Assembly: GCF_058153355.1 (NCBI RefSeq)
Contig: NZ_CM177019.1
DNA length: 64,000 nt
Strand: one strand, 5' to 3'
Shown: positions 41,640 through 45,808 of the stretch, piece after piece
How the letters are laid out: each line of letters begins with the position of its first letter
Numbering within the stretch: position 1 is the stretch's first letter
The notes under the pieces: generated by a model
Databases searched by the model: none
Seen by the model: the letters and a program-made list of their open reading frames with translations, nothing else
What the model was told of the DNA's origin: nothing
Position numbers and translations under genes: made by a program

Positions 41640-42060
41640 GCTTCGCCCGGCCACGCAGTACGACACCGACGCAGTTTACGCGCTGATTTGTGAGCTAAAA
41701 CAGGCGGAGTTTGACCACCACGCGTTTCGCGTGGGGTTTAACGCCAATCTGCGCGACCCGAACATGCGCTACCATCTGGCGCTGCTGGATGGCGAAGTTG
41801 TCGGCATGATCGGCCTGCATTTGCAGTTTCATCTGCATCATGTCAACTGGATCGGCGAAATTCAGGAACTGGTGGTGATGCCGCAGGCGCGCGGTCTGAA
41901 CGTCGGCAGTAAATTACTGGCATGGGCCGAAGAAGAAGCCCGCCAGGCCGGGGCCGAAATGACCGAGCTTTCCACCAACGTCAAGCGCCACGACGCGCAC
42001 CGTTTCTATCTGCGCGAAGGCTACGAGCAGAGCCACTTCCGCTTCACCAAGGCGCTGTAA
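41626..42060 (+). CDS. phnO: Aminoalkylphosphonate N-acetyltransferase PhnO (GNAT)
   Basis: GNAT fold; operon position. Confidence 0.92.
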
Positions 42061-42061
42061 C

Positions 42062-42820
42062 ATGAGCCTGACCCTCACACTTACTGGCACTGGCGGCGCA
42101 CAGGGCGTTCCCGCATGGGGCTGTGAGTGTGCGGCCTGCGCCAGAGCGCAGCGCTCACCGCAGTATCGCCGCCAGCCATGCAGCGGCGTCGTGAAGTTTA
42201 ACGAGGCGATCACCCTGATCGACGCCGGGCTGCACGATCTCGCCGATCGCTGGTCGCCCGGATCGTTCCAGCAGTTTTTGCTGACGCACTACCATATGGA
42301 TCACGTGCAGGGGCTGTTTCCGCTGCGCTGGGGCGTGGGCGATTCTATCCCGGTCTACGGCCCGCCGGATGAACAGGGCTGCGACGATCTGTTTAGACAT
42401 CCGGGCCTGCTTGATTTCAGCCACACGGTGGAGCCATTTGTGATGTTTGATTTGCAGGGATTACAGGTCACGCCGCTGCCGCTCAACCATTCGAAACTCA
42501 CTTTCGGCTATCTACTGGAAACGGCACATAGCCGGGTGGCGTGGCTGTCTGACACCGCAGGCCTGCCGGAAAAAACGGTGAAATTTTTACGCAATAATCA
42601 GCCGCAGGTGATGGTGATTGATTGCAGCCACCCACCGCGCGCGAATTCGCCACGCAATCACTGTGATTTAAACACCGTGCTGGCGCTGAATGAAGTTATC
42701 CGCTCGCCGCGCGTGGTTCTGACACATATCAGCCATCAGCTTGATGTGTGGCTGATGGAGAACGTACTGCCGTCAGGGTTTGAGGCGGGGTTTGATGGGA
42801 TGGAGATTGGGGTGGAGTAA
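42062..42820 (+). CDS. phnP: Phosphoribosyl cyclic phosphodiesterase PhnP (metallo-beta-lactamase fold)
   Basis: HYHMDH motif; last gene of the phn operon. Confidence 0.92.
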
Positions 42821-42854
42821 TGGGTGAGGGGCGATGCCTGCTCTAAACTCAACA

Positions 42855-43184
42855 TCACCGCCCATACTCATCTTCCATTCTCCGCTCTTCATCTTCTAGC
42901 TGCCGACGCTCCTGATCCAGCTGGCGCTGGCGATCGTCCAGCTGCCTGCGGCGATCTTCAAACTGGCGGCGGCGATCGTCATATTGTCTGCGCCGATCGT
43001 CGTTCACTTCACGCTGCCAGCCGTCGTCGCGCGAATCTTCATAGTCTCGCCCACGGTCAGGGTTATAAGCATCGTTAATCGCCTGCTGAATATTGCCAAT
43101 GGTGTCGTCGATAATATCGGCCTGGGCCGGAACGGTGGACAGCGTGAGCAGGGTGAATAAAAGAAATAGCGGAAAACGTTTCAT
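42855..43184 (-). CDS. yjdP: Secreted Arg/Asp/Glu-rich repeat protein YjdP (109 aa)
   Basis: Signal peptide followed by low-complexity DDRRRQ.. repeats. Confidence 0.85.
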   Translation of the reverse strand: MKRFPLFLLFTLLTLSTVPAQADIIDDTIGNIQQAINDAYNPDRGRDYEDSRDDGWQREVNDDRRRQYDDRRRQFEDRRRQLDDRQRQLDQERRQLEDEERRMEDEYGR

Positions 43185-43252
43185 TAGCCAACCTCAAAAA
43201 GAAACTCTATCCACATTAGTCATTACTCATCCATGCAAGTAGTGGATGAATC

Positions 43253-43570
43253 TCAATTTTTCCGCTGCTCTATTGCCGTAATCGCCTCCACGCGTTGTTG
43301 ATGACGACCGCCTTCGTACTGCGCGCCCAGCCACGCATCCACAATCATTTTTGCCAGTTCGAGGCCAACCACTCGTGAACCAAAAGCCAGTGCAACTTCA
43401 CTGGCGTAATGCGGATAATCAGTGCGCTCTGACGACCTGGTTTCTTTATCAATCCCCTCACTCATTGACCATGAATAAAAGGCTGGCACAGCAACGCAGA
43501 ATCCTGCGGTGCCAGCGACATGACCGCCCATTGCTCCGGTACGTTTTTTAATAAGAAATACCGGTTGCAT
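43253..43570 (-). pseudogene. rpiB: rpiB-derived remnant: C-terminal region of ribose-5-phosphate isomerase B retained, internal segment missing, N-terminal part unrecognisable
   Basis: ORF contains ...SSERTDYPHYAS.VALA then FGSRVVGLELAKMIVDAWLGAQYEGGRHQQRVEAITAIEQR.N, which matches RpiB as I recall it, but about 50 central residues including the catalytic Cys region are absent. Confidence 0.55.
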
Positions 43571-43822
43571 TGATTAATTGTGCTCAGTATTTGCCGAAGT
43601 ACAATATATATAATAAATATATAAAACACCTCATATTATTTACAGAGATAATAAATTCGCGTACTTTTCCCTCTTCAGCACAAATGCCTAATAAAATGGC
43701 TCGTTCCGCTCACACTTCCACTTATTAAAATCGCAATTTCCCAATTATGATAACGCCAGCTTTAAATGACGTATTTTGCATGGATTACATATTTACGACA
43801 CAAATGATAAATGGAGATTTAT

Positions 43823-45808
43823 ATGAATAACTCTCGGTTATTCCGTTTGAGCAGGATTGTTATTGCGTTAACTGCCGCCAGCGGCATGATGGTAAATACC
43901 GCTCACGCAACAGATGAAGCGAAAGCCGCCACTCAATATACCCAACAGGTTAATCAGAATTACGCCAAATCATTACCGTTTAGCGATCGTCAGGATTTTG
44001 ACGATGCCCAGCGTGGATTTATCGCTCCGCTGCTGGATGAAGGTATTCTGCGTGATGCGAATGGCAAAATTTACTACCGCGCGGATGATTACAAATTTGA
44101 TATTAATGCCGCTGCGCCGGAAACCGTAAACCCCAGCCTGTGGCGTCAGTCGCAGATCAACGGCATTTCTGGCCTGTTCAAAGTCACCGATAAAATGTAT
44201 CAGGTGCGCGGCCAGGATATCTCTAACATTACATTCGTTGAGGGCGAGAAAGGCATTATTGTTATCGACCCACTGGTGACGCCGCCTGCCGCAAAAGCCG
44301 CACTTGACCTTTACTTCCAGCATCGTCCGCAAAAACCGATTGTTGCTGTTATTTACACCCACAGCCACGCCGACCATTATGGCGGTGTGAAAGGCATTAT
44401 CTCTGAAGCGGATGTTAAATCTGGCAAAGTGCAGGTGATCGCTCCGGCAGGCTTTATGGACGAAGCCATCAGCGAAAACGTGCTGGCGGGTAACATCATG
44501 AGCCGCCGTGCACTTTACTCTTACGGCCTGTTACTGCCGCACAACGCGCAAGGTAACGTGGGCAATGGGCTTGGCGTGACGCTGGCAACGGGCGACCCGA
44601 GCATTATTGCGCCAACCAAAACGATTGTCAGAACTGGCGAGAAGATGGTCATCGACGGTCTGGAGTTTGACTTTCTGATGACTCCGGGTAGCGAAGCTCC
44701 AGCCGAAATGCACTTCTATATTCCGGCCCTGAAAGCCCTGTGTACCGCCGAAAACGCCACGCATACCTTGCACAACTTCTACACCCTGCGCGGCGCGAAA
44801 ACCCGCGACACCAGCAAGTGGACAGAGTATCTGAACGAAACGCTGGATATGTGGGGTAACGACGCGGAAGTACTGTTTATGCCGCACACCTGGCCGGTCT
44901 GGGGCAATAAGCATATCAATGATTATATTGGTAAATATCGCGATACTATCAAATACATTCACGACCAGACCCTGCACCTGGCGAACCAGGGTTACACCAT
45001 GAATGAAATCGGCGACATGATTAAGCTGCCACCTGCGCTTGCCAATAACTGGGCCAGCCGCGGCTATTACGGTTCTGTTAGCCACAACGCCCGTGCAGTG
45101 TATAACTTCTATCTCGGCTATTATGACGGCAATCCAGCTAACCTACATCCGTACGGTCAGGTGGAGATGGGCAAACGTTACGTGAAAGCGCTGGGCGGTT
45201 CCGCCCGTGTCATCAACCTGGCGCAAGAAGCGAACAAGCAAGGGGATTACCGCTGGTCAGCAGAGTTGCTGAAACAGGTGATTGCTGCCAATCCGGGTGA
45301 CCAGGTGGCGAAGAATCTGCAAGCGAATAACTTTGAGCAGTTGGGTTATCAGGCCGAGTCCGCCACCTGGCGCGGTTTCTACCTGACCGGCGCAAAAGAG
45401 CTGCGCGAAGGGGTGCATAAGTTCAGCCACGGCACCACCGGTTCTCCGGACACCCTTCGCGGGATGTCGGTCGAAATGCTGTTCGACTTTATGGCCGTTC
45501 GCCTCGATAGCGCGAAAGCCGCAGGTAAGAATATCAGCCTGAACTTCAATATGAGCAACGGCGATAACCTCAACCTGACGCTGAACGATAGCGTGCTTAA
45601 CTACCGTAAAACGCTGCAACCTGAAGCCAACGCCTCTTTCTACATCAGCCGTGAAGATCTGCACGCCGTGCTGACCGGACAAGCCAAAATGGCCGATCTG
45701 GTGAAAACGAAGAAAGCCAAAATTATTGGCAATGGCGCGAAACTGGAAGAAATTATTGCCTGTCTGGATAATTTTGATTTGTGGGTGAATATCGTAACCC
45801 CAAATTAA
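43823..45808 (+). CDS. yjcS: Alkyl/aryl-sulfatase YjcS (661 aa; metallo-beta-lactamase plus SCP2-like domains)
   Basis: Signal peptide [29 protein letters not shown]; HSHADH motif. Confidence 0.9.

Follow-up and report, generated by a model that had tools for sequence, protein, structure and literature searches.

In E. coli K-12 MG1655, the genes yjdP and yjcS are separated by 7,270 bp that carry rpiB, alsR (rpiR), alsB, alsA, alsC, alsE and alsK; the D-allose regulon of this strain was described by Kim et al. 1997 and Poulsen et al. 1999 (as cited in PMC2808357). In the window analyzed here, i.e., the whole stretch of 64 kb, the same two genes lie only 638 bp apart (positions 43185–43822, from the yjdP start at 43184 to the K-12-equivalent yjcS start at 43823). 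This raises the question of what became of rpiB and the als genes at this locus, and whether anything that is left of them could still be functional. The original prediction had proposed that only about 640 bp stand in place of rpiB-alsR-alsBACEK, which the measured length bears out. It had also held that the als operon and rpiR are absent and that this strain is left with a non-functional remnant of rpiB and without allose catabolism, and it had named an alignment against K-12 rpiB and a pangenome comparison as suitable checks.

Composition of the yjdP–yjcS interval

The window consists of E. coli/Shigella-type sequence and runs in the reverse of the K-12 orientation, with the gene order phnM, phnN, phnO, phnP (+), yjdP (−), a 105-codon ORF (−), yjcS (+), ytcA and mdtNOP. 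Sensitive blastn against the K-12 locus split the 638 bp into six pieces (Table 1). With regard to K-12, the window keeps, at the same site and in the same order and orientation, rpiB codons 29–53 and 107–149, the alsK stop codon, the hairpin that follows it and the yjcS upstream region. Missing are approximately 6.5 kb, comprising the 5' end and promoter of rpiB, alsR, alsBACE and nearly all of alsK, together with a further 159 bp within rpiB, while a 78-bp spacer is present in the window and not in K-12.

Table 1. Features of the yjdP–yjcS interval and its flanks (window coordinates)
Feature	Position	Strand	Evidence
yjdP, left flank, DDRRRQL-repeat protein	42855..43184	−	tblastn, 99.1% identity to K-12 YjdP; annotated yjdP in closest genomes
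yjdP-rpiB intergenic spacer, collinear with K-12	43185..43252		within 291-bp blastn block (window 43100–43390), 98.6% identical to K-12
105-codon chimeric ORF, rpiB remnant, WP_001183291.1	43253..43570	−	ORF list, BLASTP, phmmer, Pfam, NCBIfam
rpiB 3' fragment: CTGGCT junction repeat, codons 107–149 and stop, 138 nt	43253..43390	−	blastn, 98.6% to K-12
Junction of the 159-bp in-frame deletion, single CTGGCT copy	43385..43390	−	overlapping blastn blocks
rpiB internal fragment, codons 29–53	43385..43459	−	blastn, 91% to K-12 over 70 bp, 84% over extended 95-bp alignment; BLASTP, phmmer
Last ~11 nt of alsK and TGA stop (43472–43474), right-hand endpoint of the ~6.5-kb deletion	43461..43474	+	blastn; K-12 and E. 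whittamii alsK ends compared
Conserved GC-rich hairpin just downstream of alsK in als+ strains	43482..43516	+	homologous to K-12 and E. whittamii sequence after the alsK stop
78-bp spacer absent from K-12-type alsK-yjcS intergenic region	43521..43598		gap in K-12 alignment; only in short-allele genomes
Native AT-rich yjcS upstream region, common to all three alleles	43599..43822	+	94% identical to K-12; three-way alignment
yjcS, alkyl sulfatase, right flank	43823..45808	+	tblastn, 98.3% identity over 661 aa to K-12 YjcS

The codon-29 side of rpiB meets the alsK tail at 43460/43461, and the block that contains the alsK stop codon and the hairpin (43469–43520) is 79% identical to K-12 (blastn, E = 2e-7). 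Read antisense, the hairpin makes up approximately codons 19–30 of the ORF, and the surrounding region (43470–43570) folds with −35.3 kcal/mol (z = −3.8). The start codon of the ORF, an ATG at 43568–43570, falls inside the 78-bp spacer. A search of Rfam over 43000–44000 gave no matches.

With regard to the AT-rich segment in front of yjcS, which had been put at 240 bp, the composition was as proposed (31% GC vs. 52.7% window-wide) and the length came to 252 bp (43571–43822), but the segment is just the ordinary yjcS upstream region. It aligns with both the K-12 alsK-yjcS intergenic region and its O157:H7 counterpart. From about 43661 onwards, this upstream region is near-invariant, including in Escherichia sp. 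E1V33 and E. whittamii.

The 105-codon ORF

BLASTP against K-12 RpiB aligned ORF residues 38–62 with RpiB residues 29–53 and ORF residues 63–105 with RpiB residues 107–149, leaving a gap of 53 residues (E = 4e-35), and phmmer against the E. coli RpiB structures 1NN4 and 2VVR returned the same two separate stretches. Both methods hence recovered the RpiB-like C-terminus and the internal loss that had been proposed, with the loss amounting to 53 residues (159 bp) instead of about 50. Residues 1–37, described beforehand as unrecognizable, matched nothing in RpiB, but their DNA is traceable, since these codons are antisense to the 3' end of alsK and the sequence downstream of it, covering the alsK tail, the hairpin and part of the 78-bp spacer. 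The right half of the 78-bp spacer weakly resembles the border of an alternative gene island found at this site in O157:H7 (local alignment score of 13, met or exceeded by 1.85% of shuffles). A derivation of the ORF N-terminus (MQPVFLI...) from the start of the response regulator of that island (MKPVVLV...) was considered and rejected on the basis of this weak DNA similarity, which indicates at most a shared spacer.

A full-length match to the domain of the RpiB/LacA/LacB family (approximately 138–143 positions) above a curated cut-off was not obtained. Pfam PF02502 scored 45.8 bits against a gathering score of 24.7, but over profile positions 102–138 of 138 only, and the ORF stayed below the NCBIfam cut-offs both for TIGR01120 (77 bits vs. 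a cut-off of 138.65; K-12 RpiB, 255.7) and for TIGR00689 (61.7 bits vs. a cut-off of 88.3; K-12 RpiB, 211.1). RpiB residues 1–28, i.e., the whole N-terminus, are gone from the ORF, and with them the N-terminal β-strand and loop that carry Asp9 and His10, which reportedly were assigned to substrate binding in the paper on the E. coli RpiB structure. Moreover, Cys66, Thr68 and His99 (K-12 translation) all fall within the deleted residues 54–106. Cys66 is the catalytic base of RpiB, together with Thr68, and an H99N mutant shows a 26-fold decrease in kcat (PMC4783025). Since Cys66, Thr68, His99 and the entire N-terminus are missing, the ORF cannot be an isomerase, and the predicted loss of rpiB function is sustained by the absent catalytic residues and by the NCBIfam scores. 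As judged from the alignment with K-12 rpiB, the ORF is a chimeric two-fragment RpiB remnant, neither a divergent full-length RpiB nor a different gene; it combines syntenic homology to a functional gene with the loss of essential parts of it, as a gene remnant does.

A scan for sigma-70-like promoters over 43100–43900 on both strands found none, and direct reading of the sequence before the ORF ATG, ATACTGAGCACAATTAATCA, revealed no match to a Shine-Dalgarno motif. At the junction of the 159-bp deletion (43386–43405, minus strand), the native rpiB inverted repeat GCCAGTG...CACTGGC now abuts TTTTGG, forming a terminator-like hairpin within the ORF. This hairpin is probably fortuitous, with one such site present vs. 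0.7 expected in shuffled sequence.

We also compared the ORF among short alleles. Nine of them were aligned (those of the window, 24A16CRGN010, an ST69 O15:H18 strain, M8, ECOR29, 2012C-4606, GF3-3, OkiPb01708 and EAEC 042); both junctions were common to all nine, and the ORF was intact in each, free of indels and with point differences only. In the eight alleles that were analyzed for substitutions, seven non-synonymous and six synonymous sites gave a pN/pS of about 0.4, a value from 13 sites only that is not significantly below 1 but does not establish neutrality either; part of the ORF can also recombine with the functional rpiB of als+ strains. The 90%-identity cluster of the ORF protein holds 912 distinct sequences. 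Among the members listed, many replacements were scattered along the protein, some of them radical, and some forms were called from the internal Met14 or Met36; these features would fit relaxed constraint and do not amount to a test of it. Tens of thousands of assemblies carry the exact 105-aa sequence of the window, in each case flanked by yjcS and yjdP, and the source names include Shigella sonnei and S. flexneri.

Alleles of the locus and their origin

Among 5,426 complete E. coli genomes, the whole short interval was detected by megablast (query 42800–44000) in 1,567, and the junction segment 43440–43610 in 1,575 (29%). K-12 alsR-alsK DNA was present in 3,404 of these genomes, and an O157-type island, for which O157:H7 Z1825 served as the reference, in 422; this island was also found in Escherichia sp. 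E1V33. The three allele counts total 5,401 of the 5,426 genomes, which fits mutually exclusive alleles, so that short-allele genomes should lack als elsewhere. The yjdP–yjcS site is a three-state hotspot, occupied by als, by the remnant or by the O157-type island. In O157:H7, the latter places 9 kb between yjdP and yjcS, encoding a hybrid sensor kinase, a sugar ABC transporter, a D-lyxose/D-mannose isomerase, a ketose-bisphosphate aldolase, a kinase and a response regulator. It has the hotspot and the yjcS upstream region in common with the window but, unlike the window, this alternative cluster contains neither an rpiB nor an als remnant.

The pangenome comparison bore out the loss of rpiB and als but not its framing as a feature of one strain, as approximately 1,575 of the 5,426 genomes are alike in this respect. 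The short allele is a common, old haplotype and not a strain peculiarity; its two junctions, present in all nine aligned alleles, imply that the deletions are old and predate its spread.

A few matches to the locus were located on records labelled as plasmids (6–7 places for the flanks, one for the short junction and two for the als operon); the replicons may have been mislabelled, or plasmids may have picked up pieces of the chromosome.

Taken as a whole, the interval very probably represents an ancient, fixed allele of the yjdP–yjcS locus that two deletions produced from an als+ ancestor. It retains a pseudogene-like and presumably unexpressed chimeric ORF, with no RpiB or allose function provided from the locus. 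The first deletion, of approximately 6.5 kb, would have begun at rpiB codon 28/29 and ended about 11 nt short of the alsK stop codon, taking with it the rpiB promoter, alsR, alsB, alsA, alsC and alsE. The second, of 159 bp (53 codons), would have removed an in-frame segment within the surviving rpiB piece, between CTGGCT direct repeats. This hexamer occurs twice in intact K-12 rpiB, at Leu52-Ala53 and at Leu105-Ala106, and once in the window, as the 6-bp overlap of the two rpiB blocks; its presence at both endpoints of the 159 bp indicates slippage or a microhomology-mediated deletion. We infer the order and the mechanism of the two deletions from these sequence arrangements.

The inner fragments of the short allele are 79–91% identical to E. 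coli als+ alleles, and the flanks 94–99%. A distant blastn search with segment 43440–43610 against the 5,426 E. coli genomes matched short-allele genomes only, and returned no parent in which the 78-bp spacer comes after an intact alsK. Likewise, the divergent als+ strain AVS0970 matched the inner fragments no better than K-12 did, and no GTDB species representative gave a hit in a scan with an exact 24-mer for a parent allele with the 78-bp spacer. Probably, to go by these identities, the als haplotype that gave rise to the allele is missing from present-day samples, and the flanks of the allele were later homogenized by recombination. A conserved 22-mer from the yjcS upstream region led to two loci only in other species, namely those of Escherichia sp. 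E1V33 and of E. whittamii, both with short flanks. The alsK-yjcS adjacency in E. whittamii shows that the als arrangement exists outside E. coli.

Other explanations for the short interval have to be weighed against these data. That it represents an ancestral empty site, into which rpiB and als were inserted later in K-12-type lineages, might be suggested by the hotspot character of the locus, for which three or more alternative contents are seen, and by inner segments that are strongly diverged from K-12. This is nonetheless highly improbable, given that two non-contiguous rpiB pieces, the alsK tail and the hairpin are all present in the correct relative order and orientation, and that the als arrangement next to yjcS also occurs in a different species, E. 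whittamii. We give next to no credence to a full-length divergent RpiB, to a different gene or to a collapse in the assembly. The PF02502 score above the gathering threshold and the database name ribose-5-phosphate isomerase would speak for an intact protein, but the Pfam match is confined to the last 37 of 138 profile positions, the NCBIfam cut-offs are not reached, and 53 residues are gone, including the catalytic Cys66. As for a collapse, over 1,500 genomes that were finished independently show the identical architecture.

It also seems very unlikely to us that the 105-aa ORF is an expressed small protein under selection, for instance with a new function built on the C-terminal helices of RpiB. 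In this regard, the ORF is open in nine out of nine alleles, both deletions preserve the frame, the pN/pS is around 0.4 (eight alleles, 13 sites), and the product is annotated as a protein in RefSeq and elsewhere, with the exact sequence occurring in tens of thousands of assemblies. However, fewer than one stop-creating substitution is expected in 318 nt at approximately 3–4% divergence, which makes the open frame uninformative, and the pN/pS value comes from 13 sites in an ORF of which part can recombine with functional rpiB. Furthermore, there is neither a promoter-like site nor a visible Shine-Dalgarno motif, the Rossmann-like fold has lost its active site along with its central strands, and the 912-sequence cluster exhibits scattered radical replacements and starts at Met14 or Met36. 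We attach just as little probability to the idea that the chimeric ORF is translated and kept as a small protein, de novo or remodelled, combining the RpiB C-terminal helices with an N-terminus that stems from terminator DNA read antisense, or else that niche-dependent selection holds the three-way polymorphism.

Consequences for D-allose use and annotation

Under the preferred reading of an ancient deletion allele, the als functions should be missing from the strain. tblastn with K-12 AlsR, AlsB, AlsC, AlsE and AlsK across the 64-kb window gave no significant matches, and AlsA matched only generic ABC ATPases at 23–31% identity, including phn genes. The als regulon, i.e., alsR, the alsBAC ABC transporter, the alsE epimerase and the alsK kinase, was not found in the window, in keeping with the prediction that the als operon and rpiR are gone. 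That als is absent genome-wide we infer from the allele counts, which are nearly exclusive. Judging by its gene content, the strain would obtain no RpiB/allose-6-phosphate isomerase activity from the yjdP–yjcS locus, and no transport or catabolism of D-allose either. The essential isomerase function is covered by RpiA, on which ribose-5-phosphate isomerization would have to rely; rpiA lies outside the window.

The consequences for growth are illustrated by enteroaggregative E. coli (EAEC) 042, in which the als locus was reported missing and D-allose metabolism defective by Biolog phenotype arrays in 2010 (PMC2808357). The interval of this strain (NC_017626.1, 4784549–4785186) has the same 638-bp architecture as the window, without indels, at approximately 97.6% identity (15 point differences), and includes the 105-codon ORF (WP_001183290.1). 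The allose phenotype of EAEC 042 should hence apply to the allele of the window, which agrees with the proposed lack of allose catabolism. The same publication described a 'complete absence' of rpiB, whereas a fragment of the gene is in fact kept both in EAEC 042 and in the window. Similarly, the failure of E. coli W to use allose was put down to its lack of alsBACEK (PMC3032704). At a locus known to be variable, the feature is thus a common deletion allele that had already been reported; its biological weight is small, as the absence of als in many E. coli lineages and their inability to use D-allose have been published since 2010–2011.

In every RefSeq annotation examined, and among the genome matches listed, the remnant is entered as an ordinary CDS, 'RpiB/LacA/LacB family sugar-phosphate isomerase', and is not flagged as a pseudogene (WP_001183291.1 in the window, and WP_001183287.1, WP_001183283.1, WP_001183290.1 and others). 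Elsewhere it goes by the name 'ribose 5-phosphate isomerase B', and UniRef likewise names an intact isomerase. Automated metabolic reconstructions could thereby wrongly credit short-allele strains with RpiB or allose-6-phosphate isomerase activity. Such strains, as seen here or reported, include phylogroup B1 (ECOR29), ST69, EAEC 042 and sequences labelled Shigella. The interval is also a clean three-allele marker, which could be used for typing or for studies of hotspot turnover.

With regard to the surroundings of the interval, divergence from K-12 is mosaic across 42062–45805 (94.0% for PhnP, 99.1% for YjdP and 98.3% for YjcS at the protein level; 98.6% for the rpiB 3' fragment at the DNA level), a pattern suggestive of recombination breakpoints around the interval. 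Among the complete E. coli genomes, 42000–45000 was matched at 98.9% at best, indicating that the lineage of the strain is thinly represented among them. A search for IS1 ends, which would have pointed to a possible Shigella origin, found none. In the megablast search with 42800–44000, the first 22 bases of the query were matched in only a subset of genomes. The spacer between phnP and yjdP measures 34 bp in the window (42821–42854), as it does in the ST69, EAEC 042 and 24A16CRGN010 genomes, whereas K-12 and many further assemblies with the short allele have 146 bp there; an indel of approximately 112 bp is segregating beside the yjdP–yjcS hotspot.
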